Source: Rhodocyclaceae bacterium
GTDB taxonomy: Bacteria; Pseudomonadota; Gammaproteobacteria; Burkholderiales; Rhodocyclaceae
Direction: 5' to 3'
Length of the DNA stretch: 64,000 nucleotides
NCBI GenBank assembly: GCA_044230495.1
Contig: JBGARB010000004.1
Coordinates: forward strand, 438-64,437
Numbering within the stretch: position 1 is the first letter of the stretch; every line of letters starts with the position of its first letter. Positions 18,959-59,711 of this stretch are shown here, one piece after another. A program made the position numbers and the translations under genes. The notes beneath the pieces were generated by a model that searched no databases, was not told the origin of the DNA, and was given only the letters and a program-made list of their open reading frames with translations.

Positions 18959-18964
18959 TCCGCC

Positions 18965-18989
18965 AAACTACAGTGGTGGTGGGACGGCG
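18965..18989 (+). repeat. 25-bp dispersed repeat, copy 4 (AAACTACAGTGGTGGTGGGACGGCG)
   Basis: Lies at a convergent junction, 6 nt after the stop at 18958. Its reverse strand supplies …AVPPPL-TAG, the end of the TerC-family gene. A CGGCGGCG/CGCCGCCG hairpin follows (18991-19009). Confidence 0.9.
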
Positions 18990-19936
18990 CCGGCGGCGGG
19001 CCGCCGCCGCAGCGACAGCCACACCGAACCGCCGATCAGCGCGGCGACGATGGCCAGCGACAGGCCGACCGGCACCTTGATGAAATCGACCAGCAGCATC
19101 TTCGCGCCGATGAACACGAGCACGGCGGCGAGGCCGTATTTCAGCAGCGAGAAGCGGTCGGCCATGTCGGCGAGCAGAAAATACATCGCGCGCAGGCCGA
19201 GGATCGCAAAGACGTTGGACGTCAGCACGATGAACGGATCGGTGGTGATGGCGAAGATCGCCGGGATCGAATCCACCGCAAAGATGATGTCGGAAAACTC
19301 GACCATCACCAGCGCGAGGAACAGCGGCGTGAACAGCCGCACGCCATCCTCGACCACGATGAAACGCTCGCCGCGCAGGCCGTCGGTCAGCGGCAGCCGC
19401 GCACGCAGCCAGCGCAGCAGCGGATTGTCGGACAGCCCGTGGTCGCTGCCGGCCAGCCAGAACATCTTGATGCCGGTGACGAGCAGGAAGCCGCCGAACA
19501 GATAGAGCAGCCAGTGGAACTGCGTGATCAGCCAGGCGCCGGCGAAGATCATGATCGTGCGCAGCACGATGGCGCCCAGCACGCCGTAGATCAGTACGCG
19601 GCGCTGCAGTTCGATCGGTACGCCGATGACGGCAAACAGCATCAGCCAGACGAAGACGTTGTCCACGGCCAGCGACTTTTCGATCACGTAGCCGGTGAGG
19701 AACTCCAGCGCAGTCCGCGTGGCGCGCGCCTCGCCGGCGCTGCCGGCCAGCCAGACCCACAGGCCGGCGGCGAAGGCCAGCGACACGGCCACCCACACCG
19801 CCGACCACGTGGCGGCGGCGCGCAGCGACATGCGCTGACCGCGCCCGCCGCCGGCCGCAAGGAGGTCGATCGCCAGCATCGTCGCGACCACCGCCGCGAA
19901 ACTCGCCCACATCCAGCCATTGGCCACGCTTTCCAT
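18968..19936 (-). CDS. TerC family integral membrane protein
   Basis: Trimmed to [13 protein letters not shown]... (ATG 19936). It is polytopic, with LAVDNVF and SIPAIFAIT TerC motifs. The last six codons and the stop codon lie inside a copy of the 25-bp repeat. Confidence 0.8.
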
Positions 19937-20142
19937 GTTGCCGTTCCGTCCCGAAGAAGCGCGCAGCGTAGCGGCGCGACGATGGCCGGACAATTCGGAA
20001 GAATCTCGCCGCAACTCGGTTTTTTCGATGTCTCGACGCGCAGTAAGCTGCGTTCGGGAGGAAAGAGGCCATCGATACGCTGAACGCCAACACACCATCC
20101 GCCGCGCGCACGCTGCCGTGGCGACGCATTGCCGTCGCCCTC

Positions 20143-21619
20143 GTGCTGGCCGTCGCCGCCGCGCTGGTGGGCGAACGGATTGCCGGTGAGCGCGACGTCG
20201 CCCGCCACGAGCGACTGGTGACGGCGATGGCCGGACAACTCGCCGAAGGCGGCGTGCGCGCCAAGGTATTCGGCGCCATGATCGCGCTCGGGCAGATCAA
20301 CGCAGCGATACGCGAAACGGCGGCCGGTCGCCGGCCGCCCGACAATGCCGAGACCATCGAAGTGCTCCGGGCGCTCGATCAAGCGTTCGACCTGGGCAAT
20401 GCCTTCGTGACCAATCTCGATGGCGTGGTGGTTGCCTATCACGTCGACTCGGGCGTCTCCGGCAGCGGCCGCAACCTGTTCTTCCGCCCGTACATTCGTG
20501 CCGCGCTGTCGGGGACGCCCGCCATGTACGCCGCGATGGGCACCGCCACGGGCGATCGCGGCATCTACGTCGCCGCGCCGATCCCGCAACGGCGGACCGC
20601 GCCCGGCGCCATCGAGGGCGAGCCCATCGGTGCCGTGGTGGCGAAAGTCTCGTTCGACGAAATCGACGAACTGCTCGACGCGGCGCCGATCCCGGTGGCG
20701 CTCGTTTCTCCGGAAGGCGTGGTGTTTGCGTCCAACCAGTTGTCTTGGCGCTCCCGCATCGTCGGCGCAAACGTCGATGCCGCCGCGGTGGCCAAGGATC
20801 CGCGTGCCGGCCGCGCTTACGATCTGATCCAGCCGCAGCGGCTCGACATCGCCGTGGACGGCACGCTTGAACTCGATGGCCAACGCCATCGCATGGTGGC
20901 CCTCGATGTCGATTGGCACGATCCGCAGGGCAACTGGCGCCTGCTGGGTTTCGCCAATGCCGGCGCCAGCTACGGCTGGCCCGGTCGCGCCATCGTCGGC
21001 CTGACGACGTTCCTGCTCGTTCTGCTCGCCTTGCAGTGGCGAGCGGCGCATCGCGCAGCGCACGGCCGAACTGGAAATCGCCAACCGCAAGCTGGCCGCA
21101 TTGTCCGCCACCGATCCGCTGACCGGGCTCGCCAACCGCCGGCGCTTCGACGAGGCGCTGGCGACCGAGACGCTGCAGGCAAGGCGCGCCGGCAAGCCGA
21201 TGGCGCTGGCGATGATCGACGTCGACCATTTCAAGAAATTCAACGACCTCTATGGCCACCAGGGCGGTGACGACACGCTGCGCCAGGTCGCCGCGGTCAT
21301 GGCCGCACACGCCCGACGTCCGAGCGACCTCATCGCCCGCTATGGCGGCGAGGAGATCGCGATGATCCTGCCGGAGACGCCGATCGACGACGCACTGCGC
21401 ATCCTGGACGCCATCCGCGCCGACATCGAAACCCGCCAGCTGCCGCATGCGGGCGCGCCGCTGGGCCACGTTTCCGTCAGCATCGCCATCGCCGCGCTGA
21501 ACGCGCCGCTGCCCGACGCAGCGGCCGTGCTGATCGCGGCCGCCGATCAGGCGCTTTATCGCGCCAAGGACGGCGGACGCAACCGCGTTGTCGTGGCGGG
21601 CAGCGCGATCGCGCGATAG
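20143..21619 (+). pseudogene. diguanylate cyclase (periplasmic sensor domain - TM - GGDEF) with an apparent frameshift near 21040
   Basis: Frame 1 (20143..) encodes a sensor domain and the TM helix GRAIVGLTTFLLVLLALQW. The natural continuation, ERRIAQRTAELEIANRKLAALSATDPLTGLANRR...RYGGEEIA (GGDEF), is in frame 2 from about 21041 to the stop at 21619. The true N-terminus is probably upstream of 20143: an in-frame TM helix starts near 20080, but no ATG/GTG/TTG is present there. This could be a sequencing error rather than decay. Confidence 0.55.
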
Positions 21620-21644
21620 CGCCGTGTCACCACCACTGTAGTTT
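21620..21644 (-). repeat. 25-bp dispersed repeat, copy 5 (AAACTACAGTGGTGGTGACACGGCG)
   Basis: Fills most of the 34-nt convergent spacer between the GGDEF gene stop (21619) and the uvrA stop (21654). Confidence 0.9.
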
Positions 21645-21653
21645 GCGGGGGCG

Positions 21654-24560: not shown

Positions 24561-25253
24561 CTAGCGCTCGATCGGCGTAATGGTCAGACTGTCCGGCCCG
24601 GAGCGCACGTGGATCAGCAGTTCCGCGCGCACGGCACGCCGTCCGATCCGGGCCGGGAAGTAGCGGGCGCCTGCGAAGGCCGCGGCGGCCTCCGCTGACA
24701 GCGCCGCTTCGATGGCCGACAGCACGACGACGGAGTCGACGCTGCCGCCGTCGCTGATGCGGACTGAAAGCAGCGTTTCCGACACAGGATAGAGACGCCC
24801 CGCCTCTTCACGCAGTACCGGTGCCTGCAGCACTGGCCGCTGTGTCAGCTCCGACAACCGGTGATAGTGCGGCAACGCGGCCGACGCCAGGTCAGCCAGT
24901 GCCACGCGATCGGTTCCCATGGCATCCGTCAGTCCATCTGTCGGTCGCACTGCCGGTATCGGCGGCGGATGGAACGAAACAGCAGGCCTTGGCGACACTT
25001 CCGTCCCCGACATGATGGATTCATGTGTTGCCTGGTCGCTGCGCGCAAGGGCAACGGCGTCCCTTACTTCCGACACGGCGCTACCTGCTTGCCCTTCCGG
25101 TCGGGACGCCAGGCTGCCGACCACGAACGCCCACGATTGGGCGGGGCCGGCCTCCCGGGCCAGCCCCGCCGGTGTCACCGGAACATAGAGCAGCGAACCG
25201 TGCAGCAACAACGAGCCAAGCAATGCCCCCGCTAGTTCGTGATCTCGCGCCAT
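24561..25253 (-). CDS. hypothetical protein with a weak TonB C-terminal-like domain; last gene of the pilus operon
   Basis: Taken from ORF 24561..25703, trimmed to MARDHELAGALLGSLLLHG (ATG 25253), which overlaps the pilY1 stop by 22 nt. It has an N-terminal TM helix, a Pro-rich middle and a C-terminal ~80 aa that resembles TonB_C by eye only. Confidence 0.4.
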   Translation of the reverse strand: MARDHELAGALLGSLLLHGSLLYVPVTPAGLAREAGPAQSWAFVVGSLASRPEGQAGSAVSEVRDAVALARSDQATHESIMSGTEVSPRPAVSFHPPPIPAVRPTDGLTDAMGTDRVALADLASAALPHYHRLSELTQRPVLQAPVLREEAGRLYPVSETLLSVRISDGGSVDSVVVLSAIEAALSAEAAAAFAGARYFPARIGRRAVRAELLIHVRSGPDSLTITPIER

Positions 25254-28200
25254 GTCAGGCGGCGGCCTTCCGGATTGCCGATGGCGATAGGCGGCTCCAG
25301 CGTGATGGTCTCCGCGTCGGACAAGGTCGCAATCACCTTCGTCTTGCCGCTGGGCAGTCGGATCACGTTGATGCCGACCGCCAGCGCATCGGCGAGGCGT
25401 TGGCCGACCTTGCCGTCCGCAATACCGCAGCCGTTGCGCAGGTCGAAGTAGTTCAGCCAGCTGTAGCCCCCGACATTGCAGGCCTGCGGATCCGGCACGT
25501 TGGAGGCGACAATCAGCGTACCCAACTGGATCTGCATATCGACGTTCACCCGCTCCTTGCTGTCGGGCAGGTTGACGTACCAGCCATTCGGCGTCGAATT
25601 CGTGCAGCTCGTGACGGTACGAATCTGCGATGCCCCTGATCCGGTTTGCGTGACCGTCTGTGCGATGAGGTCGGTACGTCCATTGACGACCACCGGAGCG
25701 CACGCAGATGCGGGTTCGGTCATCGGATCCTTGATGCCATAGACCGACTGCACTTGCGTCGAAGTCATGTCGGTGCTGCCCAGGTAGCGGCCGGTTCCGA
25801 CATAGACGAAGATTTCCGTGCCCACCAGCGAGACGAGCGGCTTGACGGTGATCGGTTGCGGCGTGCCGCCCGCATCGGTCACGGTGATCAGCTTGGTCGC
25901 CTCCAGACCCGTCGGCGCGATGCTGTCATTGACATCGAATCGCCACACATTGCCGGCCATGTCGGCGCCGTAGATATGGCTGACCGTGTTGTTGATGATC
26001 GGGTCGGCCGCTGACCAGCCGGCGATCTTCATCAGGTTCGACGGCGTGCCGGCGGACCCTTCGCAGGTGACGATGTCGCTGAGCAGTGCGCCCGTCACCG
26101 CGTTGAGGACGTACAGGTGTCCCTTGCCGTCGGCGTTGTTCACTCCGGAGGTCACGAATACCGCCCACGTGCCGTCAGCCAGCTTGCCGATCAGCGGATT
26201 GCCGTAGCTGTAGCCGAGGTTGGCATCGGTGAATTCCCACAGCGCCTTGGGAGCCGCCGGATCGGTGACATCCAGCGCGTAGTACGACTTGCCGCCCTTG
26301 TTCAGCCCGCCGACGACGATCGTGCGCCAGTTGGTGCCATCGAACACGTCTCCCGCAACCGGCGAGCCGTCCACCAGGAAGCGGTGTGCCGTGGCGTAAT
26401 CACGATTGGTAAGCTTGTGCAATTCCGGCAGGACAGCGCGCGGCATGAATGCCCACGCCTCGCTTCCGTCATTGCCGTTGAAGGCATGCAACATGCCGTC
26501 ATTGGACGCCACATACACCATCGATGCCCGCGACGCATTCGCGGACTTGAACGCCGCGTAGCCCGTGTCTTCGTACAGCGCAAACGGTTTGCGCACGAAC
26601 AGCGGCTGGGCATTGACGATGTCGCCCAACACCGTATCGAGGTCGGTGTCGCCCCGCTTGCGGTAGAACTGCGTCGACGAAGCGGCATCCCATGCGTCCG
26701 CATTGCTGTTGACTTCATTGCCTCGCTGACCGCGGATGAAGTTCACCATCCGGTAGCCGGCCGCCGCCGCGCGCTGGTTGTAGGTCGTACCGGAACCATC
26801 TCCCATGTCCGGGTACTGGCCGAGGCTCGAGACCTGCGTGCTGCCGAAGTAGCCCTGCTCGGTGGCGTCCAGGGTCGTCACGGCTGCGCCGGTCGGGTTC
26901 TTGCTGCCGTCGCACGCATAGGTGTTCCACTTGAAGTCGACCATGTTGTCAGTCGCACCCGAGCGGAAGAGCTTGATCGTCCGCGTATCGCAGGCGCCGC
27001 CCACCTTGTTGTTGAGCTGCGTGGCCGCGGTCCAGACCGATGCATCCAGCACCTGTCCCTCGACCACGTTTTCGCCATCGACGACGCCATCGGCAAGCGC
27101 AATCGCATGCGCCTCGATATCGCCATACCAGGATTGCGTCTTGTACTTCGCGAGGTAAGCAAAGTTGTCGCCGGCCACCGGCTCCAGGTTCGATGTGGCG
27201 GCCGCCGCGGCAGATGCCACGCGGGCGTTCAGGCCGGAAAGTGCAGTGCGCAGGGAGGACGCCACCGATTCCGGGTCGGACGCGCTGAAGTACTGGCCAC
27301 GACCGTTCACCGCCGCATGCCAGAGGTCGTCCAGTGCCGACGGACTGTCGGCTGAGGGCGCCGGCCAGTTCAGCGTGCCCTCGCGAATCGCGCCGAAATT
27401 GCCGTCCGCCGCGGTCTGCTGCTGCTTGTAATTCTGCGCGTAGGCGATGGTGCCGGACAGGCCGAGACCCAGGGTATAGGTGGACATGTGCTGCCAGGTC
27501 GCGCGGTCAGCCTCGACATCGGAGCCGGCAGCCGGCACGTTGTTCTCGAGCGTCGGACGCAGGTCATTGACGTAGTAGTACTGCGCGACATCGGCCAGCG
27601 TGCCGTTGGCACCGGCGGTGAGCGCGCCATAGCTCACGCACGGCCACGCGGTACACGGCGCGGTCGGGAGGGGGGGCTCCGGGTCGACAGGGCGGCGCGG
27701 ATTCGGTGTTGGCGCGGTCGGGGTGCCACTGGCGGTTGGCATGCAGGTGCCTTCAGGGGCCGCCATGTTGGTCCATGCCGAATAGCTGTTGGTGACGGTC
27801 GGCGAGCCGACGTCGACACCACCGCTGGTGTTCTGCGTCGTGGTCGTCGTTTGTGTGCGGTACTGGATGCGATTGCCCGGATCGGAGCCCGAGCCCGGAT
27901 CGCAGATCACCTCCACGCCACTGCCATCTGGTCCTGATGGCGTACAGGAAGCCACATTGGTCCAGTCCTGAATCACGATCGACTGGCAGAAATTCGTGGG
28001 GGTGGCAACGCAGGGCCCGGTGGTATTCGTCCATGGCCCGCCGCTGATGATGTCACAGGTCACGCGCACGCCGCCGGCATTGGACTCAGTGCACGAGGGC
28101 GCATTCGGCTCGGTGGAAACCGTAATTTCCCGACAGTCCCGGCGATTCGTGCCGCTGTTGTCCACTGTGCAGGACGATGCATTGACCCAGCCGTTCCACA

Positions 28201-29911
28201 CCACGCTGCAGGTGCGCGCCGTACCGGCCGTGTAGTTCGTCGGTCCGGGGCTTTGCGCCACCGGCGTGCAGCTGCTGGTCGTGCCCTGATCGGTATAGGC
28301 CGTGTATTGGCATTGGCGGGCGAGCGCCCACACCGCGCCGTTGGCCGTGCTCGTCTGCTCGTTCACCACGGTGCAGGAGGACTGGTTCGACCAGGATGAC
28401 CAGGATGCGGCATAGCGGCAGTCACGCCGGCTACTTCCGCTCGCATCGATCGTGCAGCTTGACGTGCCGCCGCTGCCGGTGGCCGCCCATCCAGTCCAGG
28501 TGGCACCGCTGTTGGCCGAGGTTCGCGTTTCCAGTGTCCGCTGACGACGCTGCAGATAGGACTCGTAGTAATGCTGCTGGCCGTCATTGCTTTGCAATTG
28601 GTAGATCGTCTTCGTGATCGACCCACTCTGCTGCTGCCATTGCAGCGTGCGCTGCCGGTCAACCGTCACCGTGCAGGCGGCGACCTGATAGTGATTCAGC
28701 TTGTCGATCGTCGTGCGCACTTGCGATGCGCCGTCGAACATCGGGCGACCGCTGATCAGCAGACCTGTCCCTTGCGCGTCTGTCGCCGTGACGTTGCTGT
28801 CGTAGGTCTGCGTATCCATCGAACTGCCATCCAGCGTCGAACCGCCGCCGCCGTTCCAGTATCCGTCAGTGGTCAGGATGGTGAAATTTTGCTGGCAGGA
28901 ATACTGCACCGGATCGTCCGCTGCCGACGGAATCATGCCGGCGTTGATGCCGTCGTTCTTGCCGGCGAAGTAACGGCCGACGCGCGACAGTGCCGGGCGC
29001 AGCGGCGTCGAGCCGCTGGTCGAGGCGCCGTAAAGCTTGTCGAACCAGCTGCGCTTCTGTTCGCCGACATTGACCCCTTCAAAAGGCGCCGGCTTGAGGA
29101 ACTTGCTGGCGTTGATGGTTGCTGGATCGCCGGTCATCGGATTGATGGTGATGAAACCTACGCGGTAACGGTTGTTGATGCCGTCGAAGGCCTCGCCGAC
29201 GGCTGCCTTCATCATCATCAGGCGCTTGCGGTAATAGCTGTACCAGTTGGCGAAATTGGTGCGCTCGTCCGTTCCACCGGGGCCGGATGTGGCTGAAACC
29301 ACCCTCTTTGTCCAGGAGCCGCCGCTCGGGTCGGCGATTGTGTTGGGCCAGGACCATGGCTGTTCGGTTGTGTTTTGTGACGCATCGACCTTGATCGTGC
29401 AGGACGATGACAGCGGTGACAGCTTCGTGATCGCAGACACGCCGTCGAAGGCCGTGCCGCCAAACGACTGCTTCGAATGCACGTAGTAGTAGGCGGGCTG
29501 AGGAGAGCTGTCGAACGGATCCCAACGGCCCTGATGCGCAAAGGACGTGGACAGGTCATTTGTGCACCCCGGTGAACTGCTGTAGCCGTTGGTGCAGGCT
29601 GCGGTAAATGTACGACTCGCCTTGCGCGTGCCATCGGCGTTCTTGGGTGGCAGGTAGGTAAGGTTCGGGTTGTAATAGACGGTGTTGCATTCCCAGTTGC
29701 GTGCGCCAACGTCGTTCAGTCGATCATCCAGCGCGTCCGGCATGAACATCCAGTCCATCGACCCGGAATCGTCGAGCACGAACATCACGTTCGGCTTGAC
29801 GTCGGCAGAGGTTACGGAAACCAGCGGCTGGTCGGAAAGATCGGCCAGCGCGGCGTAGGCCACGGGCGCTGCCATGGTCAGCAGCGCACAGGCGAGAAGG
29901 CGTCGTTTCAT
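25232..29911 (-). CDS. pilY1: type IV pilus tip-associated adhesin PilY1 (vWA domain + Cys-rich insert + C-terminal PilY1/PilC propeller), 1559 aa
   Basis: Trimmed to MKRRLLACALLTMAAPVAYA (signal peptide, ATG 29911). A vWA MIDAS motif (VMFVLDDSGSMDW) is present. The long C-terminal region is typical of PilY1, and the gene follows pilX as in fimU-pilVWXY1E operons. Confidence 0.85.
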   Translation of the reverse strand: MKRRLLACALLTMAAPVAYAALADLSDQPLVSVTSADVKPNVMFVLDDSGSMDWMFMPDALDDRLNDVGARNWECNTVYYNPNLTYLPPKNADGTRKASRTFTAACTNGYSSSPGCTNDLSTSFAHQGRWDPFDSSPQPAYYYVHSKQSFGGTAFDGVSAITKLSPLSSSCTIKVDASQNTTEQPWSWPNTIADPSGGSWTKRVVSATSGPGGTDERTNFANWYSYYRKRLMMMKAAVGEAFDGINNRYRVGFITINPMTGDPATINASKFLKPAPFEGVNVGEQKRSWFDKLYGASTSGSTPLRPALSRVGRYFAGKNDGINAGMIPSAADDPVQYSCQQNFTILTTDGYWNGGGGSTLDGSSMDTQTYDSNVTATDAQGTGLLISGRPMFDGASQVRTTIDKLNHYQVAACTVTVDRQRTLQWQQQSGSITKTIYQLQSNDGQQHYYESYLQRRQRTLETRTSANSGATWTGWAATGSGGTSSCTIDASGSSRRDCRYAASWSSWSNQSSCTVVNEQTSTANGAVWALARQCQYTAYTDQGTTSSCTPVAQSPGPTNYTAGTARTCSVVWNGWVNASSCTVDNSGTNRRDCREITVSTEPNAPSCTESNAGGVRVTCDIISGGPWTNTTGPCVATPTNFCQSIVIQDWTNVASCTPSGPDGSGVEVICDPGSGSDPGNRIQYRTQTTTTTQNTSGGVDVGSPTVTNSYSAWTNMAAPEGTCMPTASGTPTAPTPNPRRPVDPEPPLPTAPCTAWPCVSYGALTAGANGTLADVAQYYYVNDLRPTLENNVPAAGSDVEADRATWQHMSTYTLGLGLSGTIAYAQNYKQQQTAADGNFGAIREGTLNWPAPSADSPSALDDLWHAAVNGRGQYFSASDPESVASSLRTALSGLNARVASAAAAATSNLEPVAGDNFAYLAKYKTQSWYGDIEAHAIALADGVVDGENVVEGQVLDASVWTAATQLNNKVGGACDTRTIKLFRSGATDNMVDFKWNTYACDGSKNPTGAAVTTLDATEQGYFGSTQVSSLGQYPDMGDGSGTTYNQRAAAAGYRMVNFIRGQRGNEVNSNADAWDAASSTQFYRKRGDTDLDTVLGDIVNAQPLFVRKPFALYEDTGYAAFKSANASRASMVYVASNDGMLHAFNGNDGSEAWAFMPRAVLPELHKLTNRDYATAHRFLVDGSPVAGDVFDGTNWRTIVVGGLNKGGKSYYALDVTDPAAPKALWEFTDANLGYSYGNPLIGKLADGTWAVFVTSGVNNADGKGHLYVLNAVTGALLSDIVTCEGSAGTPSNLMKIAGWSAADPIINNTVSHIYGADMAGNVWRFDVNDSIAPTGLEATKLITVTDAGGTPQPITVKPLVSLVGTEIFVYVGTGRYLGSTDMTSTQVQSVYGIKDPMTEPASACAPVVVNGRTDLIAQTVTQTGSGASQIRTVTSCTNSTPNGWYVNLPDSKERVNVDMQIQLGTLIVASNVPDPQACNVGGYSWLNYFDLRNGCGIADGKVGQRLADALAVGINVIRLPSGKTKVIATLSDAETITLEPPIAIGNPEGRRLTWREITN

Positions 29912-29924
29912 GATCGCTCCTGGA

Positions 29925-30581
29925 TCAGAACATCGTGGTTTGCGTGAAGGCGACCGCGTTGCGCGGCCCGCGAACGCGGGTGGTGATGCGGTAATAGGGC
30001 CGCATCGTCGTCGAAAGCTGTTGCGTGCCGTAGGTGATCGTCCCATGGCCACCGCTGCCACCGCCCGTCTGCAGCGCCAGCACGCAGCTTTGGCCCGATG
30101 CATCGATCGAACCAATGCGATCGCACAGCCGATGCACGACATAGCGAACGCTATTGCCGGCGGCATCGAGATCATCGTCACCGTCACCATCGGTGTCCGT
30201 CACCAGAATGCTCTGGTTGGTACCTTCCCAGTCGTAGGTGAAGGGATCGAAACGCGACGGTGTGGCCGAAGCATTGCAATTGGTCGCACTGGCCACATCA
30301 GTCTGATCGTTGTAGCAGTGGGCGGGGAAATAGCCCGGAAAGGCCGCAAAGAGGGCCGATCCGGTCTGGTTCATCAGCCAGTCGCGCGCCACTTCCTGGC
30401 CGCTGTCGGCACCGGCGATGGCGGAATTGGTAAACGTGAGGTTGCCGGAAATCATCGCGCTGGCCGCCAGCTTGCGGAACATCGCGACGCCGGAGAGCAT
30501 CATCGCGCCGAGGATGATGATGGCGATGATCAGTGAAACGCCCTGCTGGGCGCGCCGGCCGGTCAATGATCGTGCGCTCAT
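29925..30581 (-). CDS. pilX: type IV pilus minor pilin PilX
   Basis: Trimmed to MSARSLTGRRAQQGVSLIIAIIILGAMMLSGVAMF (PilX N-terminal type). The start overlaps the pilW stop. Confidence 0.7.
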   Translation of the reverse strand: MSARSLTGRRAQQGVSLIIAIIILGAMMLSGVAMFRKLAASAMISGNLTFTNSAIAGADSGQEVARDWLMNQTGSALFAAFPGYFPAHCYNDQTDVASATNCNASATPSRFDPFTYDWEGTNQSILVTDTDGDGDDDLDAAGNSVRYVVHRLCDRIGSIDASGQSCVLALQTGGGSGGHGTITYGTQQLSTTMRPYYRITTRVRGPRNAVAFTQTTMF

Positions 30582-31678
30582 GCTGCGACATTCCTCCAGA
30601 TCATGTTGCGCAGGGGAACCATGACTTCCTGCACCTGATACTTGTAGTGCCGCCAGTTGTTGATGGCGGCGCCACCGGCGCCCGAATCGGCCGTGCCGTC
30701 GACATTGCGCATCGTGAAGGCGCCGCCCGCCCACCCTGGCGCGGTGGTCGTCACCGGCGCGTTGGCGCGCTCCTGCCCGCGAATGAGGATGGCAAAGCGG
30801 ATCAGGCGCAACTGCTCCCAAGCGGCGGCATTGGCGGGCGTCGTCGCCGTCCACGTGTCGGCGGCTGTATCACCGTCCGTATCGAGGCCGTACTCGGCCT
30901 GCAGGTCGACCACGTTATCCACCACATCGCCCCATGCGGGCGGCGCGGCATGATCGTTGAGCAGATTGGCCCGTACCAAGCGGTTGTTGTCAATCGCCCA
31001 CGCATTCAGGCGCGGCGAGAACTGCCAATCATTGGCGGGCATCACGGGTGCTTTGCCCAGGTTATGCAGAACGGCATTCGATGCCGGAAAGGTCAGAGTG
31101 ACGGCCGTTGAGCCGCTGAACCGGCCAAACCCTGCCGCATGAAGAATCTGCGGCGCCGCATCCGCGCCTTGCGCGACTGTCGCGGCACTGACATGCATCA
31201 ACCGGCAACCCGACGCCGATGCGAGTACGACAAGGTCGTTCTGCTCGATGCCGCCGCGCGCATCAAGCAGCGTATCGCCGGCCGCCGATGACTGCACGAT
31301 GTAAGTAGACGAAGGCGCCTGCGAACTGCCGTAAAGCACATGGATCTGGTCCGGTGCGCCTCCAGCGCCGTCGATGATCCGGACGGGCGCGAGCGGGAAG
31401 GTAAAAGCCGTACCGTTGTCGCTCGCGGCGACGCTGCAGCCGAAATAGGTGGTGCCGGCTATCGGTTCGCCGGTGATGCCCATGCCGCCATTGCGGATGT
31501 CGCGTTCGAGCTGGAAGGCTGCGACAGTGCCCGATACCTGCGCCTCGCCGCCAGACGACAAGGCGCGCTTGTTGCGATCGAAATCTTCTTGGGTACGCAG
31601 GATCATGAACATGCCGATGATGCCGATGAAGGCACCGATCAACACCTCGAGAATGGTGAAACCGCCTTGCCGCTTCAT
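30578..31678 (-). CDS. pilW: type IV pilus minor pilin PilW
   Basis: MKRQGGFTILEVLIGAFIG prepilin-type N-terminus; 366 aa; lies between pilV and pilX. Confidence 0.8.
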   Translation of the reverse strand: MKRQGGFTILEVLIGAFIGIIGMFMILRTQEDFDRNKRALSSGGEAQVSGTVAAFQLERDIRNGGMGITGEPIAGTTYFGCSVAASDNGTAFTFPLAPVRIIDGAGGAPDQIHVLYGSSQAPSSTYIVQSSAAGDTLLDARGGIEQNDLVVLASASGCRLMHVSAATVAQGADAAPQILHAAGFGRFSGSTAVTLTFPASNAVLHNLGKAPVMPANDWQFSPRLNAWAIDNNRLVRANLLNDHAAPPAWGDVVDNVVDLQAEYGLDTDGDTAADTWTATTPANAAAWEQLRLIRFAILIRGQERANAPVTTTAPGWAGGAFTMRNVDGTADSGAGGAAINNWRHYKYQVQEVMVPLRNMIWRNVAA

Positions 31679-32157
31679 GTCACGGTCCCCATCAGCACGT
31701 GCCGGCGCGGCACGGACAATCCTGGCTGCTGCCAGCAGACGACGATGCGCACCTGATTGACGCGCGATGGCGCCACCGCCGGGATCACGCGTACCTGACC
31801 GCTGGCTTGCGGCAGCGCCTGCGCAGCCTGCAGGTCGGCAACCCAGGTGGTGATGATCGCGTTGGCGGAATCCGCACCGCTGAACGCGCAGTCGGTGTCG
31901 CCACCCGTCGGTTGATGGTCGAAGGACGCGAGGTCGGCGTTGTAATTCACCATCGTGTCGCGACGGATATTGGCCTGGATTTCGGAGAACAGCCGGTTGG
32001 CGAAGTTGTTGGCTTCGACGCGATAGCCTGTATCGACATTCGTATTGATGGCCGCGGCCTGCAGGCCGATGAGGCCGAGGATGCCAAACGAAAAAAGGAC
32101 CAGTGCGATCAGCGCCTCGATGATCATCGAGCCTTGTTGAGACCTCATGATTCTCAT
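31675..32157 (-). CDS. pilV: type IV pilus minor pilin PilV
   Basis: MRIMRSQQGSMIIEALIALVLFSFGILG prepilin-like N-terminus; 160 aa; 4-nt overlaps on both sides. Confidence 0.8.
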   Translation of the reverse strand: MRIMRSQQGSMIIEALIALVLFSFGILGLIGLQAAAINTNVDTGYRVEANNFANRLFSEIQANIRRDTMVNYNADLASFDHQPTGGDTDCAFSGADSANAIITTWVADLQAAQALPQASGQVRVIPAVAPSRVNQVRIVVCWQQPGLSVPRRHVLMGTVT

Positions 32158-33313: not shown

Positions 33314-33338
33314 AAACTACAGTGGTGGTGACACGGCG
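33314..33338 (+). repeat. 25-bp dispersed repeat, copy 6 (AAACTACAGTGGTGGTGACACGGCG)
   Basis: Lies in the divergent pilE / sensor-kinase spacer. Its 3' CGGCGC forms the base of an imperfect hairpin, CGGCGC-TT-GGC-cgcaaa-GCC-GCGCCG. Confidence 0.9.
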
Positions 33339-45450: not shown

Positions 45451-45474
45451 CGTTCGCGACGGGGCCGTTTCATC

Positions 45475-47628
45475 TCAGCGGGCCTCGTTGCCGCCCCAGC
45501 GCTGGGGCATCAGCGGACACGACAGCGGTGCAAGCGCCGTCCCGCCACCACTGTAGTTTGCGTAGATCGCCTCCAGCGCCTGATCGTAGGTGGAGAAGAT
45601 CCTGTCCTCGCCCAGCCAGGCCAGCAGGCCCGTGGCGCGCATGACGTCCAGCACCTGCTTCTTGAGGCCCGAAAACACCACATCGACGCCGCCCTCGCGC
45701 AAGCGGCGGATGACATGGTGCATGACTTCCTCACCCGAGGCATCCAGCTCGTTGATGCCGTCGCCGACGATCAGCAGCGTGCGCGCCTTCGGGTTGCCGG
45801 CCACCGCCTCGAGGATCGCATCCTCGAAGTACGACACGTTGGCGAAATACAGCCGACCGTCGAAGCGCACGGCGGTCACGATCTCCGAGGTCGGCAGGTT
45901 GTGCACCTTGACGTCGCGCAAGGTGCCGTCGGCATGCCGGCCGAGAATCGCCACGCGCGGGCGCATGGTGCGGAAAAGGTACAGCGCGATGGCCACCGCG
46001 GCGCCGACGAGGATGCCGGTATCGAGGTGCGGCGCAAAGGCCAGCGTGGCGGCAAAGGTGATGATCGCCGCGATGCCGTCGTGTCTGCTGGCCTGCCACG
46101 CGTGACGGATGGCACCGAAATTCACCAGCCCGACAACGGCCATGATGATGACCGCCGCCAGCACCGCCTGCGGCAGGTGGTAGAGCAGCGGCGTCAGGAA
46201 CAGCAGCGTGAGCAGCACGAACAAGCCGGTGAATACCGCCGAGAGTCCGCTCGCCGCGCCGGCGTTGAGATTCACCGCCGAGCGCGAGAACGACCCCGAT
46301 ACCGGAAAACCCTGTGTCAGCGCACTGGCCAGATTGGCCAGCCCCTGCCCCAGCAACTCCTGGTTCGGATCGATGCGTTGACGGGTCTTGGCGGCCATTG
46401 CCTTGGCGATCGAGATCGCTTCCATGAACGCCACCAGCGAGATCACCACCGCCGCCGACAGCAGCGCGCGCAGGCTGTCCCAACTGATCGCAGGCAGGGC
46501 CACGGTGGGCAAGCCTTCGGGAACCTTGCCGACGACTTCGCCACCGCCCACCAGCCGAACCTCGCCCCCCGGTGCGCCCGGCGCGCGCGCAATGCGCCAG
46601 CGATGACCGTCCGTCCCTTGTGCGGGTGCCGCCGCGGCATCGACGAACCGGTCCGCAGCGCCCGCCGCACCGGGAAGGCGCGCCAACGACATGCTGCGCA
46701 GCGCCCGGTTGCGCACGCGATTCTCGGCCTCGCGATCTTTCAGTTGCAGCCGCAGCACGTCGATTTCGTAGTTGAGCGTCAGCGCCGCATGCGCGCCACC
46801 GGTACCCGCCTTGCGTGCCGCGGCCAGCGCCGCGCCCCCGCTCGCGATGCGCGCATTCAACTCCTCGATCTTCTGCTGCGCCGAGGCGTATTCGGCGAGC
46901 AGCATCACCGCCTCGGGCGCCTCGATCTGCGCCAGCGATACCGCCGCATTGCGCTCGAAGCCGACGGACCAACTGACCACGGTCGCGATGGCCACGGCCA
47001 CCAGCACGCCGGGCGCGCGCGGCGCAAGCCGCCGCAAGACCGCCATGACGGCGATCGCGCCGACGCCCATCGCCAGCGTCGGCCAGTGCGTGTCGCCGAT
47101 CTGCAGCAGCACGTTCCAGACATCGGCGACAAAGTGCTCGGTGCGCGGCATCGGCACGCCGATGAGCTTGTTCACCTGCGACAGCCCGATGATGATCGCC
47201 GCCGCATTGGTGAAGCCGACGATCACCGGATGCGACAGGAAATTGACCACCACGCCCAGTCGGAAGACGCCGAGCACGAGCTGGAAGACGCCGACCAGCA
47301 GCGCCAGCCCGATCGCCAGCGCGACGTAGGCCTCGGTGCCGCCGGCGGCCAGCGGCGCCAGCGCCGACGCCGTGAGCAGCGAGGCCACGGCGACCGGCCC
47401 GGTGGCGAGCTGGCTGGAGGAGCCCCACAACGCGCCGATCACCGCCGGCAGGAAGCCGGCATACAGCCCGTAGTACGGCGGCACGCCCGCCAGTTGGGCG
47501 TAGGCCATCGATTGCGGCACGAGCACCAGCGCCACCGTCAGGCCGGCGACGAAGTCCGCCCGCATCGAGCCGGCATTCGGCGCCGGCCAGCGCAAAAAGG
47601 GCAACCATGCGGAGAGTGCGGATTTCAT
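45475..47628 (-). CDS. SulP-family anion transporter with a ~140-aa insertion inside the TM core, plus STAS
   Basis: A 717-aa ORF. SulP core motifs (…GVPPYYGLYAGFLPAVIGAL…) are present. A coiled/low-complexity insert lies between …VGFERN and GKVPEGLP…. A STAS domain is present. The C-terminal tail reads through a copy of the 25-bp repeat (…[17 protein letters not shown]…). Confidence 0.85.
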   Translation of the reverse strand: MKSALSAWLPFLRWPAPNAGSMRADFVAGLTVALVLVPQSMAYAQLAGVPPYYGLYAGFLPAVIGALWGSSSQLATGPVAVASLLTASALAPLAAGGTEAYVALAIGLALLVGVFQLVLGVFRLGVVVNFLSHPVIVGFTNAAAIIIGLSQVNKLIGVPMPRTEHFVADVWNVLLQIGDTHWPTLAMGVGAIAVMAVLRRLAPRAPGVLVAVAIATVVSWSVGFERNAAVSLAQIEAPEAVMLLAEYASAQQKIEELNARIASGGAALAAARKAGTGGAHAALTLNYEIDVLRLQLKDREAENRVRNRALRSMSLARLPGAAGAADRFVDAAAAPAQGTDGHRWRIARAPGAPGGEVRLVGGGEVVGKVPEGLPTVALPAISWDSLRALLSAAVVISLVAFMEAISIAKAMAAKTRQRIDPNQELLGQGLANLASALTQGFPVSGSFSRSAVNLNAGAASGLSAVFTGLFVLLTLLFLTPLLYHLPQAVLAAVIIMAVVGLVNFGAIRHAWQASRHDGIAAIITFAATLAFAPHLDTGILVGAAVAIALYLFRTMRPRVAILGRHADGTLRDVKVHNLPTSEIVTAVRFDGRLYFANVSYFEDAILEAVAGNPKARTLLIVGDGINELDASGEEVMHHVIRRLREGGVDVVFSGLKKQVLDVMRATGLLAWLGEDRIFSTYDQALEAIYANYSGGGTALAPLSCPLMPQRWGGNEAR
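45535..45559 (-). repeat. 25-bp dispersed repeat, copy 10 (AAACTACAGTGGTGGCGGGACGGCG)
   Basis: Lies inside the 3' tail of SulP gene 45475..47628 in the sense orientation, translated NYSGGGTA. Confidence 0.9.
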
Positions 47629-51611: not shown

Positions 51612-51636
51612 CGCCGTGCCGCCACCACTGTAGTTT
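51612..51636 (-). repeat. 25-bp dispersed repeat, copy 11 (AAACTACAGTGGTGGCGGCACGGCG)
   Basis: Lies in the 35-nt convergent spacer between the adenosyltransferase stop (51602) and the cNMP-binding gene stop (51638). Confidence 0.9.
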
Positions 51637-51637
51637 G

Positions 51638-52210: not shown

Positions 52211-53818
52211 CTACTTCGTGCAGGATTCGCCAGGAAAGTAGCGGTCGCAGAAATAGCAGCCGCGCTGCGGCAGCCATGCCGGCAGCTGGTAGTAGCGCCG
52301 ACGCACCTCGCGCAGCACTTCTTCGCGATAGCGCGCGTAATCGAAGCCCTCGCCGCGGATCAGCCAGAAAGTCGCTCCGCGTACCTCGATCGTCTGCACG
52401 CGCGAACGGCGGAAATACGGCTGGTAGTAGCCGGCCTCGGGCGCCGTCTTGCGCAGGATCAGGAGGTTGCGGCCGTCGAGCGAGCGTACATCCGTCATGA
52501 TGTCGTCGTGCCGCGCATGCGAGGAGCCCAGGCCGAAGACCATCACGTAACGCTTCAGGTTCCACGCCAGCGTGATCGCGTTCGAATAACCGTCCATCGC
52601 CGGCACCCAGTTCTTCTGCGCATCGGCAAGGTCCGCCGCCAGCGCCGCCGCAATGCCGGCGCCATCGACGGTCAGCACGGCGCTCGGGTAGATGCGCTGT
52701 TTGCGCCATGTCTCCAGCGGCAACTGCGCCATGACGAACGCGGCGACGACGTGCAGCACGGCGAAGCCGACGAAGAACACGCCGAGCCGGCGCAAGGTCG
52801 GCAGCGGCACGCGCAGCGCCACCCAGATCAGCACGAAGGGCACGAACGACAGCAGCCAGTGCAGGCCGATGGTCTTCGGCCCGGAGAGCAGCCCGAACAG
52901 CAGCAACGGCACGCCGGCCAGCACGACCAATGAAACGACAGTGGTGGCGGGACGGCGCATGACATCGACCGCGTCGGCCGGATCGGCTGGCGGGCCGGCC
53001 GGCAGCGGATCGAGCGTGCGGCGCACGGCCAGCCAGGCTGCCGGCGGCGAAAAGACGTAGAGCAGCGTTGCCGCGTAGAGCAGCGGCGTTACCCACGAGA
53101 AGGCCGCGTCGGCGTTGCGATTGACGAAATTGAACATGTAGTTCGGCCAGCAATGGCCGGCGTTCCACCAGGCCATCAGCGCCAGCGCCGGCACGCACAT
53201 CGCATACGTGACGAACAACCCCGCCCAGATGCCGCGGCGGCGCAGGCGCGCCGTATCGACGAGATAGGCAAAGCCCAGCAAGGCGACGAAATATTTCGAC
53301 AGCACGGCGCCGGCCAGCAGTACACCACACAAGACGAACCAGCCCCAGCCATCGCCGGGACGCCGCTGCACCGCACGCAGCCAGGCCAGACCCGAAAGCA
53401 CGCTGAAATAGACCAGCGGCGTGTCGGTGGTGACGAAGACGTTCCAGACGTTGGCCGGCGCCAGCAGCACCAGCAGGAACAGCGCATTGCGCCGCGCCGG
53501 CTCGATGCCGGGCCAGAGCCGTGGCGCGGCCCAGGCGATGGCCAGCGCCAGCAGCAGCGGCTGCAGGATCGTCGCCACGCGCAGCAGCAGCGCCGAATCG
53601 CCCAGCGCGGAAAGCGCTGCGAGCCACCAGCCGATCATCGGCGGATGATCGTAATAGCCCCAGTCCGGCGCAAAGCCCCACCAAATGAAATATGCCTCGT
53701 CGCCGGTGACCGGCGTGACCCAGCCCAGCCAGAAACGGAAGACCAGCGAGGCGACGACGATCGCCGCCAGGACCGGCACATCGAGCAGGCCGGCGCGGGC
53801 CGGCGGGATGTGCGCCAT
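52211..53818 (-). CDS. ArnT/PMT-like (GT39/GT83) membrane glycosyltransferase with a C-terminal soluble domain
   Basis: A 535-aa ORF with an N-terminal …GDEAYFIWWG…YYDHPPM… motif and about 11 TM helices. It carries a reverse-oriented copy of the 25-bp repeat in a loop (…VMRRPATTVVSLV…). Confidence 0.75.
   Translation of the reverse strand: MAHIPPARAGLLDVPVLAAIVVASLVFRFWLGWVTPVTGDEAYFIWWGFAPDWGYYDHPPMIGWWLAALSALGDSALLLRVATILQPLLLALAIAWAAPRLWPGIEPARRNALFLLVLLAPANVWNVFVTTDTPLVYFSVLSGLAWLRAVQRRPGDGWGWFVLCGVLLAGAVLSKYFVALLGFAYLVDTARLRRRGIWAGLFVTYAMCVPALALMAWWNAGHCWPNYMFNFVNRNADAAFSWVTPLLYAATLLYVFSPPAAWLAVRRTLDPLPAGPPADPADAVDVMRRPATTVVSLVVLAGVPLLLFGLLSGPKTIGLHWLLSFVPFVLIWVALRVPLPTLRRLGVFFVGFAVLHVVAAFVMAQLPLETWRKQRIYPSAVLTVDGAGIAAALAADLADAQKNWVPAMDGYSNAITLAWNLKRYVMVFGLGSSHARHDDIMTDVRSLDGRNLLILRKTAPEAGYYQPYFRRSRVQTIEVRGATFWLIRGEGFDYARYREEVLREVRRRYYQLPAWLPQRGCYFCDRYFPGESCTK
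52933..52957 (+). repeat. 25-bp dispersed repeat, copy 12 (AAACGACAGTGGTGGCGGGACGGCG, 24/25 match)
   Basis: Lies inside the GT39-like gene in antisense orientation, translated RRPATTVVS in a predicted loop. The T-to-G change falls in the TAG triplet of the repeat's reverse strand, which lies in a frame other than the one this gene reads. Confidence 0.85.
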
Positions 53819-56568: not shown

Positions 56569-57141
56569 GTGCAACGCAACCCCGCGACCGCGATCACGCT
56601 GCTGATCGCGGTCGCGTCTTTTCTGCTGCATGCCTACGGTGAACCGGTAGACGAACTGATCTGGCGAAGTGGCATGGGTGCCGCCGCGCCTTGGCGCTGG
56701 ATCAGCGCGCATGTCGCGCACCTGTCGGCGACGCACTTTGCCGCCAACGCCGCTGCCGCGCTCGTGCTGGCCTTCGCCGCTGACCGGCTGGCGATCTCGC
56801 GCGGTTTGCCCGGTGCTTGGGTGATGTCGCTGATCGCCGTCGATCTCGGGCTGCTCGTCGGGCCGTGGCAAATCGCATGGTATGCCGGCGCCTCCGGTAC
56901 GTTGTACGGCGTAGCAGGCTGGGTTTGCCTGCGGCTCGCGCTCGACCCGATGCGTTTGCCTGCGCCCGGCGCGCAGCGGACGGCCGCCGCCCTCTACGCG
57001 CTGCTCGTCGTCAGGGTACTGTGGTCGCTCGCCACGCCGGTCGGCGAAACGGGCTGGCTGGGCGTGGCGACGGCCACGCCCGCGCACCTCTATGGCCTGG
57101 TCGGCGGCAGCATCTGGGCGCTGCTGCGCCGGGCACGGTAG
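56569..57141 (+). CDS. rhombosortase (rhomboid-family intramembrane protease for GlyGly-CTERM proteins)
   Basis: A 190-aa polytopic protein with WRWISAHVAHLSATH, YAGASGTLYG (Ser motif) and PAHLYGLVGG (His motif). It is adjacent to a GlyGly-CTERM protease. Confidence 0.7.
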   Translation: MQRNPATAITLLIAVASFLLHAYGEPVDELIWRSGMGAAAPWRWISAHVAHLSATHFAANAAAALVLAFAADRLAISRGLPGAWVMSLIAVDLGLLVGPWQIAWYAGASGTLYGVAGWVCLRLALDPMRLPAPGAQRTAAALYALLVVRVLWSLATPVGETGWLGVATATPAHLYGLVGGSIWALLRRAR

Positions 57142-58982: not shown

Positions 58983-59108
58983 GCGTCTATCCTGAATCAT
59001 CGGCGATTCGCCATGTTCGGCAAACACGGATGCGGCGTCAAGCACCTTTGCATGACTTGACGCGCGTTGCCGTTACACTGGCCCGCACGCGTTCGTCCGG
59101 GAGTCGCC

Positions 59109-59576
59109 ATGGAAACCAAGCCGCCGTTGCCGCCTTTCACCGCCGAAACCGCCGCGCAGAAAGTGCGCATGGCCGAGGATGCATGGAACACCCGCGATCC
59201 GGATCGTGTCGCGCTGGTCTATACGGAGGACACGCGCTGGCGCAATCGCGCCGAATTCCCGGTCGGCCGCGAGGAGGTCCGGCAGTTCCTGCGCCGCAAG
59301 TGGGCTCGCGAACTCGATTACCGCCTGATCAAGGAACTGTGGGCGACCAGCGGCAATCGCATCGCGGTGCGTTTCGCCTACGAATACCGCGACGATTCGG
59401 GCAATTGGTTCCGCGCTTACGGCAACGAGAACTGGGAGTTCAACGAGCAGGGCTTCATGATGCGACGATTCGCCAGCATCAATGATCTGCCCATCACCGA
59501 GGCGGAATGCAAGTTCCGCTGGCCGCTCGGCCGCAGGCCGGACGATCACCCCGGACTGTCGGACCTCGGGCTCTGA
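59109..59576 (+). CDS. DUF1348-like / NTF2-fold (SnoaL-like) protein
   Basis: Trimmed to [31 protein letters not shown] (ATG 59109, GGGAG RBS); 155 aa. The family name is from memory of similar proteins. Confidence 0.65.
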
Positions 59577-59598
59577 CGCGCCGCCACAGCGCGGCGCG
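59577..59598 (+). terminator. GC-rich hairpin CGCGCCGC-cacagc-GCGGCGCG immediately after the stop codon
   Basis: Perfect 8-bp arms were read from the sequence. No U-tract follows, so its role as an intrinsic terminator is uncertain. Confidence 0.3.
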
Positions 59599-59603
59599 GT
59601 GCG

Positions 59604-59628
59604 AAACTACAGTGGTGGTGACACGGCG
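59604..59628 (+). repeat. 25-bp dispersed repeat, copy 13 (AAACTACAGTGGTGGTGACACGGCG)
   Basis: Lies in the convergent spacer between the DUF1348-like gene and phoX, bracketed by the two GC-rich hairpins. Confidence 0.9.
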
Positions 59629-59659
59629 CCCCGCGCGGAACTGCCGCGCAAGGGGCGCC
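59625..59659. terminator. strong bipartite hairpin GGCGCCCCGCGCGG-aactg-CCGCGCaaGGGGCGCC
   Basis: The 8-bp and 6-bp stems were read from the sequence. The 5' arm starts inside the last 4 nt of the repeat copy at 59604-59628. It lies between convergent genes. Confidence 0.35.
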
Positions 59660-59711
59660 AAGTCGCAGTACACGACAATCCCCACCCCCTGTCCAGGAAT
59701 GGGGGTCGACA

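Follow-up and report, generated by a model that had tools for sequence, protein, structure and literature searches.

In the literature cited here, DNA uptake sequences are recorded from two families of host-associated bacteria only, as DUS (DNA uptake sequences) in the Neisseriaceae and USS (uptake signal sequences) in the Pasteurellaceae (PMC3630211, PMC2817400, bioRxiv 10.1101/2025.10.24.684340). An association with terminators is reported for intergenic DUS (Frye et al., PMC3630211). More generally, uptake sequences accumulate in permissive regions, with about half of the copies in terminators (bioRxiv 10.1101/2025.10.24.684340). The choice of reading frame by USS tracks preferred codons, and its copies fall on residues that are poorly conserved (Findlay and Redfield, PMC2817400). 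The origin and spread of these motifs, as by-product of the uptake machinery or as adaptation, are debated. Here we describe a 25-nt repeat dispersed along a stretch of 64,000 nucleotides (called the window below) from a Rhodocyclaceae bacterium, an uncultured organism known from metagenomes alone. The repeat may be a genome-wide recognition motif of the DNA-uptake-sequence type, a watermark accumulating where it is tolerated; from our analysis we give this reading a probability of about 0.45.

The repeat is an asymmetric motif made of a 15-mer box, AAACTACAGTGGTGG, four semi-free bases, Y-G-R-N, and a second box, ACGGCG. As in the case of DUS, it is a short motif, hyper-abundant and nearly invariant, that occurs in either orientation and favours permissive intergenic DNA, downstream of genes and beside stem-loops; a third to half of the copies are intragenic, and the motif is lineage-specific, relatives having variants of it. 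Its host falls within the same broad betaproteobacterial group as the Neisseriaceae and has genes for a type IV pilus, among them one for a minor pilin of the PilE/ComP_DUS family. The sequences are unrelated: the reverse strand of the motif reads GCCGT-N10-CTGTAG, against GCCGTCTGAA in DUS. It contains neither this core nor a dialect built on its invariant CTG, and the split resemblance of the reverse strand to GCCGTCTGAA is probably due to chance. With USS the repeat has in common an extended, asymmetric consensus (about 29 bp) in which weaker, spaced flanks accompany a strong core, copies that are mostly single rather than paired, and a strong frame preference in line with codon usage, at poorly conserved residues (PMC2817400). 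It differs from USS in its sequence, its bacterial class, its GC-rich genome, its lower density and its linked sub-types. The repeat behaves like DUS and USS but belongs to neither by sequence.

A bipartite 25-nt motif

Within the window, 13 matches with at most 3 mismatches to the 15-mer were found, 11 of them exact, against an expectation of 0.30 and a largest value of 2 in dinucleotide-preserving shuffles of the same sequence. The sample was then the unselected sequence of about 80 kb formed by the 64-kb window together with 9.3 kb to its right (contig L008) and 6.6 kb to its left (L025), both taken from near-identical metagenome contigs, the presence of the repeat playing no part in the choice. 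This sequence contains 16 copies, about 1 per 5 kb, of which 9 lie on one strand and 7 on the other. With the unrelated loci L001 and L007 taken into account, this extrapolates to several hundred copies per genome. Over the 21 specified positions, the 16 copies carry 0, 1, 2, 3, 4 and 5 mismatches in 13, 2, 1, 0, 0 and 0 cases, respectively, where chance expects none up to 4. Six other short motif-bearing loci were also used (L001, L007, L010, L017, L030 and L032).

Alignment of 20 non-redundant copies showed that all 21 specified positions are nearly invariant. C or G is preferred immediately 5′ of the motif and a weak extension, S-H-T, is seen 3′ of it. The full consensus can be written S-AAACTACAGTGGTGG-YGRN-ACGGCG-S, a bipartite site of about 28 bp with weak flanks. 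Its GC content is 47%, compared to 67.5% for the window, where it is the sole dispersed repeat family of note and the sole over-represented word of 12 bases or more. The flanks of the copies are unrelated just outside the 25–33 nt, and terminal inverted repeats and target duplications were not found; with neither these nor a defined unit length, the repeat does not have the anatomy of a miniature inverted-repeat transposable element. No inverted partner with up to 5 mismatches was found anywhere among the copies; the copy at 38101 is followed, after about 40 nt, by a partial inverted match of 9 nt, CGCCACCAC.

The copies, in window coordinates unless another contig is named, are as follows.

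1178–1202, minus strand: in murE; exact; codons ~66–74, read P-N-Y-S-G-G-D-T-A; followed by a hairpin CGGCGC...GCGCCG (~1157–1182)
8512–8536, plus strand: in a DUF6866 gene; exact; codons ~296–304 of 346, read A-N-Y-S-G-G-G-T-A
12697–12721, plus strand: in glcE; exact; codons 237–245 of 359, read A-N-Y-S-G-G-G-T-A, in a linker of variable length
18965–18989, plus strand: at the convergent junction of an NAD-binding gene and terC (9-nt spacer); exact; its reverse strand encodes the last residues of terC and its TAG stop (A-V-P-P-P-L-*), and a palindrome follows at 18991–19009
21620–21644, minus strand: in the convergent GGDEF/uvrA spacer, filling most of its 34 nt; exact; found in 5 of 5 strain contigs (L002–L006)
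33314–33338, plus strand: in the divergent spacer between the PilE/ComP-like pilin gene and a histidine kinase gene; exact; hairpin at 33334–33359
35300–35324, minus strand: in the tandem spacer between a response regulator gene and a SulP-Usp gene, antisense to both; degenerate, with 2 mismatches in the 15-mer
37905–37929, plus strand: first copy in the 337-nt convergent spacer after the SulP-Usp gene, 5 nt past its stop; exact; hairpin with base ACGGCG...CGCCGT spanning 37924–37968
38101–38125, plus strand: second copy in the same 337-nt spacer, 196 nt downstream of the first and in the same orientation; exact
45535–45559, minus strand: in the C-terminal tail of a SulP-STAS gene, past the STAS domain; exact; codons 669–677 of 696, read A-N-Y-S-G-G-G-T-A
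51612–51636, minus strand: in the 35-nt convergent spacer between a cobalamin adenosyltransferase gene and a cNMP-binding gene, 1 nt past the stop of the latter; exact
52933–52957, plus strand: antisense in a PMT_2 glycosyltransferase gene, read R-R-P-A-T-T-V-V; 1 mismatch, which changes GTA to the preferred GTC
59604–59628, plus strand: in the 135-nt convergent spacer between a DUF1348 gene and phoX; exact; strongest hairpin of all, 59625–59659 (−31.6 kcal/mol, 48-nt window); T5 is replaced by G in one strain contig (L017)
L008 13713, right of the window: in the 49-nt convergent spacer between a GGDEF-EAL gene and an MFS gene
L008 15486–15510: in a DUF3299 gene, codons 4–12, within the signal peptide; one mismatch
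Left of the window: in murD of the dcw operon, antisense; exact

Copies accumulate between convergent genes

Genes were called with our own codon model trained on the window, corrected with Pfam and with the annotation of near-identical metagenome contigs recovered via exact protein look-ups; some gene starts are our own calls. These strain contigs (L002–L006, L008–L017 and L025–L029) are 98.6–99.9% identical to the window. The non-coding share of the 80 kb is 3.7%, which makes for a very compact genome.

A preliminary description of the window held that the repeat stands at every convergent junction with some spacer, apart from the 15-nt galE/manC gap. Matches were confirmed at each of the junctions that it named (18965+, 21620−, 37905+, 38101+, 51612− and 59604+). 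In the window, 5 of 7 convergent junctions carry the repeat, the two without it being rhomboid/S8-peptidase, where the genes overlap, and galE/manC, with its 15 nt. The pattern might have been a coincidence in a small sample; an additional junction outside the window, GGDEF-EAL/MFS, also carries a copy. Over the 80 kb there are then 8 convergent junctions: 6 carry the repeat, one is a 52-nt overlap and one is the galE/manC spacer. A copy is present in 6 of 7 convergent spacers of at least 9 nt; of the other 26 spacers 2 have one, 1 of the 8 divergent and 1 of the 18 tandem ones (Fisher p = 1.7e-4). Likewise, convergent spacers account for 21% of the non-coding DNA but for 7 of the 9 non-coding copies (binomial p = 4e-4). 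Expressed as density, this amounts to 11.4 copies per kb for convergent spacers, as opposed to 0.7 for divergent and 1.0 for tandem ones, and to 0.09 per kb for coding DNA. The association is thus genuine and no product of small numbers.

The best explanation of this pattern is that, in a genome so compact, copies have collected where the DNA is most permissive. Divergent spacers hold promoters, tandem spacers consist of few bases with ribosome-binding sites, and convergent spacers are the only free DNA. On this reading the junction rule is a by-product of tolerance and not the sign of a termination function, and an apparent ‘terminator association’ can arise merely from the places in which a compact genome puts up with additional sequence. 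The uptake-sequence class is likewise enriched in permissive intergenic DNA or terminator regions.

The further copies that had been placed at the extreme 3′ ends of genes fared less well. The one assigned to the terC stop is identical with the junction copy at 18965, whose reverse strand provides CTG-TAG. That of the SulP-STAS gene does lie in the C-terminal tail, but at codons 669–677 of 696, not at the extreme end. Over all, the seven coding copies show no bias towards gene ends, being found at 2, 10, 13, 54, 66, 86 and 96% of gene length.

Three minor features of the junctions may be noted. At 57090–57141 the 3′ ends of the convergent rhomboid and S8-peptidase genes overlap (52 nt), in the window and in all strain contigs. 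In the wide junction, a putative remnant of the 3′ half of the motif, GGGTGACACGAGCG, is located at 38027–38043 between the two copies. The galE/manC spacer (63341–63355), which holds no full copy, contains CACGGCG as another putative remnant. Both remnants could be due to chance.

Intragenic copies use a single reading frame

Seven of the 16 copies are intragenic, five in the sense orientation (murE, DUF6866, glcE, SulP-STAS and DUF3299) and two antisense (the PMT_2 glycosyltransferase gene and murD). All five sense copies are read in the same frame, (A)-N-Y-S-G-G-x-T-A, and both antisense copies are read R-R-x-x-T-T-V-V. The frames left unused would require CTA (0.4% of Leu codons) together with W-W, or contain a stop codon. 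The shared N-Y-S-G-G frame includes rare codons, AGT (4% of Ser codons) and GGT (11% of Gly codons), which indicates that conservation acts on the DNA and not on the peptide.

Selection on the peptide was considered, N-Y-S resembling a glycosylation sequon, and rejected: identity is at the DNA level, rare codons included, the proteins are cytoplasmic or unrelated, and identical DNA is also found in non-coding spacers and in antisense orientation. We also rejected in-frame read-through past the upstream stop, since a single one of the 6 junction copies is in frame, as expected by chance.

Homologues were compared for two of the coding copies, those of murE and glcE. In murE the copy occupies a variable surface loop whose length differs among MurE structures, with a net gain of 2 to 6 amino acids according to structure alignment. 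In GlcE, 17 residues separate the anchors on either side, compared to 11–14 in 17 homologues in the alignment, and the copy is kept in 7 of 7 members of a cluster at 90% identity. Neither copy is a clean unit insertion; both sit in segments tolerant of change. Limitation of intragenic copies to frames with tolerable codons, and to variable linkers in the cases of murE and glcE, is again a trait of uptake sequences.

These coding copies invite comparison with the Rickettsia palindromic elements, which also occur in coding genes, in a fixed reading frame and in surface loops. Those are palindromic mobile units of 100–150 nt that insert cleanly; the present motif has 25 nt, is non-palindromic and brings a net gain of 2 to 6 amino acids.

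At locus L001 (1618–1760, minus strand), just upstream of trpF, a 46-codon open reading frame (ORF) with a signal-peptide-like start ends with the repeat in the N-Y-S frame. This ORF may be spurious in such GC-rich DNA.

Stem-loops and transcript ends

Several copies had been reported to be followed by a stem-loop whose 5′ arm begins in the terminal CGGCG(C) of the repeat. The enrichment of stems is real and modest: a perfect stem of at least 6 bp anchored in ACGGCG was found for 10 of 19 copies, compared to 32 of 163 random ACGGCG sites (p = 0.003), and folding energy is barely lower than the null (p = 0.05, non-coding copies). The stems vary in sequence and length between copies.

An element acting in RNA at the 3′ end of transcripts, as a terminator component, an RNA-stability site or a processing site, was suggested by this association, and several observations agree with it. 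At 5 junctions, the 5′ end of the motif lies 1–9 nt past the stop of the co-oriented gene, and at 2 more it lies 21–27 nt past it. Strong hairpins follow several non-coding copies (−31.6 kcal/mol at 59604, −29.6 at 37905 and −28.8 at L008 13713). A copy stands at the same offset past the macB stop in both strain haplotypes of that locus, and in tandem spacers the three exact copies that can be assigned are sense-oriented. Against this, three of the junctions are only 9–35 nt wide, so that proximity to a stop is forced. None of the stems among the copies is followed by a T-run, as an intrinsic terminator would be, and a scan of 37000–39000, which includes the widest junction, returned neither terminator-like sites nor promoters. 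Rfam gave nothing in the whole window at the gathering threshold, nor in the widest junction by E-value search. The 7 intragenic copies, at 2–96% of gene length, include those in genes of the essential dcw operon, murE and murD, that in murD being exact and antisense. The hairpin beside the copy between the pilin and histidine kinase genes is not conserved in sister lineage L030, where the motif is kept. These results speak against a transcript-end or termination element, which we regard as quite improbable.

Orientation was considered separately as a sign of RNA function. Among assignable copies, 8 are sense and 3 antisense relative to transcription, a bias that is not significant once the coding-frame effect is set aside. 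With coding copies and ambiguous convergent copies removed, the tandem spacers leave 3 sense versus 1 antisense, likewise not significant, and a sense bias was discarded as evidence.

Sub-types, copying and strain variation

Two positions 10 nt apart are linked. When the first of the four semi-free bases (N4) is T, the base after the second box is C in 10 of 10 copies; when it is C, the base after the second box is G in 6 of 9 (p = 0.003). The C...G sub-type has a common extension, GTNGA..CGCC, which forms a short hairpin. Moreover, the murE copy (1178) and the copy between the pilin and histidine kinase genes (33314) have about 47 nt in common, hairpin included.

Strain haplotypes to the right of the window bear on the same question. 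The difference between them is a strain-specific 4.4-kb block that begins 13 nt past the macB stop and contains five genes, among which are ZnuA and ABC-3 type genes (L010 11922–16287 versus L008 15433–15542). Each macB haplotype has its own repeat copy 21–26 nt past the macB stop, in surrounding DNA that cannot be aligned; the one in L008 is the DUF3299 copy. Among the strain contigs no copy shows presence/absence polymorphism. Base polymorphism was 1 of 168 positions in the core, 1 of 32 in the gap and 5 of 480 in the flanks, at about 1% diversity, which is too low to measure selection.

Linked sub-types, the 47-nt match and the macB haplotypes keep a copy-and-paste origin alive. The repeat would then be a very small selfish element that spreads in this way or by ectopic gene conversion, perhaps as substrate of an HUH/Y1-type enzyme, a single-stranded motif with a hairpin after it, in the manner of REP sequences (repetitive extragenic palindromes) and their transposases, the RAYTs (REP-associated tyrosine transposases). 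REPs and their composite BIMEs (bacterial interspersed mosaic elements) are indeed alike in several respects: they are short dispersed repeats, frequent between convergent genes, with a stem-loop, a conserved CTAC/GTAG tetranucleotide and sub-types. In the present motif this tetranucleotide lies about 17 nt from the foot of the stem, and both the enrichment of ACGGCG-anchored stems and the added residues at coding copies would fit such an element. In REPs, however, the palindrome itself is conserved and the copies are extragenic by definition, whereas here the conserved part is non-palindromic, the stems differ from copy to copy and 44% of the copies (7 of 16) are intragenic. No RAYT or other transposase gene occurs among the annotated genes of the 80 kb. 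Terminal inverted repeats, target duplications and any conserved unit beyond 25–33 nt are missing among the copies, as is insertion polymorphism among strains. The mismatch spectrum has no intermediates; neutral old copies should decay at 30% divergence, yet the boxes are intact in sister lineages, and the pilin/histidine kinase hairpin is not. On balance a selfish repeat is unlikely. Ectopic gene conversion between 25-nt identities could yield the sub-types under any model.

Conservation in sister lineages and distribution

The pilin, which evolves fast, led to two sister lineages, L030 and L032 (72% and 76% pilin identity). The DNA of L030 is 70.5% identical to the window and has 61% GC. In the orthologous pilin/histidine kinase spacer, both keep 20 of the 21 specified positions and have in common a G to C change at position 11. 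The four bases between the boxes read TGAC or CAAT in the sister lineages, and TGAC or TGGC in the window's own strains. Orthologous copies thus show the same constraint profile as paralogous ones, which points to recognition of the two boxes by some factor and argues against a neutral mobile element that has spread in a recent burst. The spacer also holds several other conserved blocks and looks regulatory.

The sister variant with C at position 11, AAACTACAGTCGTGG (L030 612–636; L032 ~153–177), is also the sequence of the one-mismatch DUF3299 copy in the window's own species (L008 15486–15510). It may be a dialect or an import by recombination.

More distant relatives gave negative results. 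No copy and no comparable dispersed motif was found in L023 and L024 (UvrA 88% identical, the closest found; about 23 kb each) or in L018 (pilin homologue at 58% identity; 19 kb), and no copy in L019–L022 (pilin 58–60% identical; 2–3 kb each). Other dialects were sought as over-represented words in L018, L023 and L024; this yielded tandem coding repeats only and the candidates were dropped. On this small sample, then, the motif is kept with a variant in L030 and L032 and is absent from L018–L024, a distribution of the kind known for uptake sequences.

A scan of reference genomes returned at least one match, in a Rhodocyclaceae metagenome-assembled genome (MAG), and the JGI metagenomes one short contig with the motif. 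IMG/VR gave no motif match, PLSDB plasmids chance-level matches only, and a literature search for the motif sequence unrelated primers only. No paper tying uptake sequences to Rhodocyclaceae or Rhodocyclales was found by full-text literature search. The motif is usable as a sharp sequence tag to bin contigs of this clade.

A putative uptake signal

The preliminary description had called the association with gene ends reminiscent of uptake sequences. This likeness has gained strength from other features: intragenic copies in a single frame, both orientations, a nearly all-or-none mismatch spectrum, unrelated flanks, lineage restriction, and boxes conserved at about 70% DNA identity where the four bases between them are not. 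Starting from the observed abundance, anatomy, placement, frame bias, lineage restriction and cross-lineage conservation, we infer that the organism may be competent, that its uptake may be biased by the motif and that a pilus protein could read it.

In the mechanism that we propose, a DNA-binding component of the type IV pilus or competence machinery would prefer the motif, and motif-bearing fragments would be taken up and recombined more often. The resulting biased turnover (molecular drive) would multiply the motif and keep its copies perfect along the chromosome, while purifying selection would clear harmful copies. Survivors would be expected in permissive DNA, that is, in convergent spacers, which have neither promoters nor ribosome-binding sites, and in the first bases past stops. 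They would also be expected in C-terminal tails and variable surface loops, there in the N-Y-S-G-G-x-T-A frame, which avoids stops, tryptophans and the rarest codons.

Several points weigh against an uptake signal. At least 21 positions are specified, in two boxes, compared to 10–12 contiguous nucleotides in DUS, although the full USS consensus is of comparable length. Density is about 1 per 5 kb, versus about 1 per kb for DUS. The inverted pairs that are common at terminators for DUS are not found here. The hairpin anchored in the 3′ box is enriched, which an uptake model alone does not predict, and the sub-types together with the 47-nt stretch described above point to copying or ectopic gene conversion rather than to a purely independent origin by point mutation. 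The pilin considered below is a generic PilE-type minor pilin, for which ComP is the third structural match (E = 0.015). The sample, finally, is about 80 kb and a few loci, not a genome.

Part of the evidence would also be accounted for by binding sites of a chromosomal protein unrelated to uptake, for example a nucleoid-organising protein or a self-DNA marker for a recombination or defence system, kept by per-locus selection or by a genome-wide benefit. Two conserved boxes with a free gap, maintained at about 70% identity, a perfect-or-absent spectrum, and intragenic copies retained in spite of rare codons would all be found in this case, and the regulatory look of the pilin/histidine kinase spacer with its other conserved blocks is in line with it. 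A local function, though, hardly needs sites in murE, murD, glcE and transporter tails. The known genome-wide markers of recombination and segregation, Chi and KOPS (FtsK-orienting polar sequences), are 8-mers with strong strand skew. Together with AIMS (architecture-imparting sequences) they resemble the repeat as words over-represented genome-wide in genes and spacers, but they are heavily skewed to the leading strand, whereas the present motif is asymmetric, 25 nt long with at least 21 specified positions, and unskewed (9 versus 7 in the 80 kb). A known candidate protein is also missing. We consider such binding sites unlikely, if a reading to be reckoned with.

An uptake signal, if this is what the repeat is, could furthermore represent a third independent family after the DUS of Neisseriaceae and the USS of Pasteurellaceae. 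Its bipartite motif would be unusually long (25–28 bp), its bearers would be an environmental clade of uncultured, GC-rich Rhodocyclaceae, and a PilE/ComP-like minor pilin would be its reader. We put this forward somewhat more tentatively. If true, sequence-selective natural transformation would not be confined to host-associated bacteria, and a third unrelated example would offer an independent test case for molecular-drive models, in free-living bacteria, with a different motif architecture and with sister lineages that differ by a one-base variant. A candidate receptor would be indicated, and an uncultured clade flagged as naturally transformable.

The minor pilin as candidate receptor

The candidate is encoded next to one of the copies.

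32744–33184, minus strand: prepilin-type minor pilin of 146 amino acids with Pfam N_methyl and ComP_DUS domains, candidate DNA receptor

This pilin matches Pfam ComP_DUS with 38 bits (cut-off 27.3) and heads a fimT-pilV-pilW-pilX-pilY1 cluster (24561–32744). Its AlphaFold2 model has a mean pLDDT (predicted local distance difference test) of 93.6. A Foldseek search of this model against the PDB returned N. meningitidis PilV first (2e-4), followed by T. thermophilus PilA4, with ComP (5hz7) third (1.5e-2) and P. aeruginosa PilE fifth. The homologues of the pilin are annotated PilE. With such annotations and PilV as first structural match, the pilin is a candidate receptor and not evidence for the uptake reading. 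Its identification as ComP proper was set aside: sequence search of the PDB gave the generic pilin N-terminus only, and the fold search was unspecific.

The whole minor-pilin cluster of the type IV pilus is complete in the window (24561–33184, minus strand), directly upstream of uvrA. It comprises the PilE/ComP_DUS-family pilin, a FimT/GspH-like protein, PilV, PilW, PilX, a PilY1 of 1547 amino acids and a TonB_C-like protein of 230 amino acids. No copy of the repeat occurs in its 8.7 kb; one lies in its upstream spacer.

Gene map and other observations

The window starts with the dcw cluster (murE, ftsI), followed by glcDEF, pntAB, terC, uvrA and the minor-pilin cluster. It ends with two SulP transporters flanking a hydrogenase-like operon, then phoX, hns, galE and manC. 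The closest UvrA homologues belong to Rhodocyclaceae or Rhodocyclales MAGs.

The two SulP-family transporters (35323–47565), one fused to two Usp domains and the other with a STAS domain, flank a seven-gene hydrogenase or complex-I-like operon (38237–45414). Its subunits include NuoB-like, NuoCD-like and antiporter-like proteins, and its 7.2 kb hold zero copies of the repeat.

Around 10300–10305, the window is about 100 nt short compared to L025 and L027, inside a DUF4147/MOFRL (glycerate-kinase-like) gene. This gene looks disrupted in the window, by a true deletion or by an assembly error. The dCache ORF (20143–21270) and the GGDEF ORF (21101–21619) overlap by 170 nt, and the called GGDEF length varies by strain contig (85, 135 and 172 amino acids); the two are probably one dCache-GGDEF gene with a frameshift.

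Finally, in the GlcE cluster at 90% identity (window 11987–13066), the members P0363 and P0365 have a different N-terminal stretch of about 20 residues and are otherwise identical. These are mosaic alleles and suggest frequent homologous recombination in the population.

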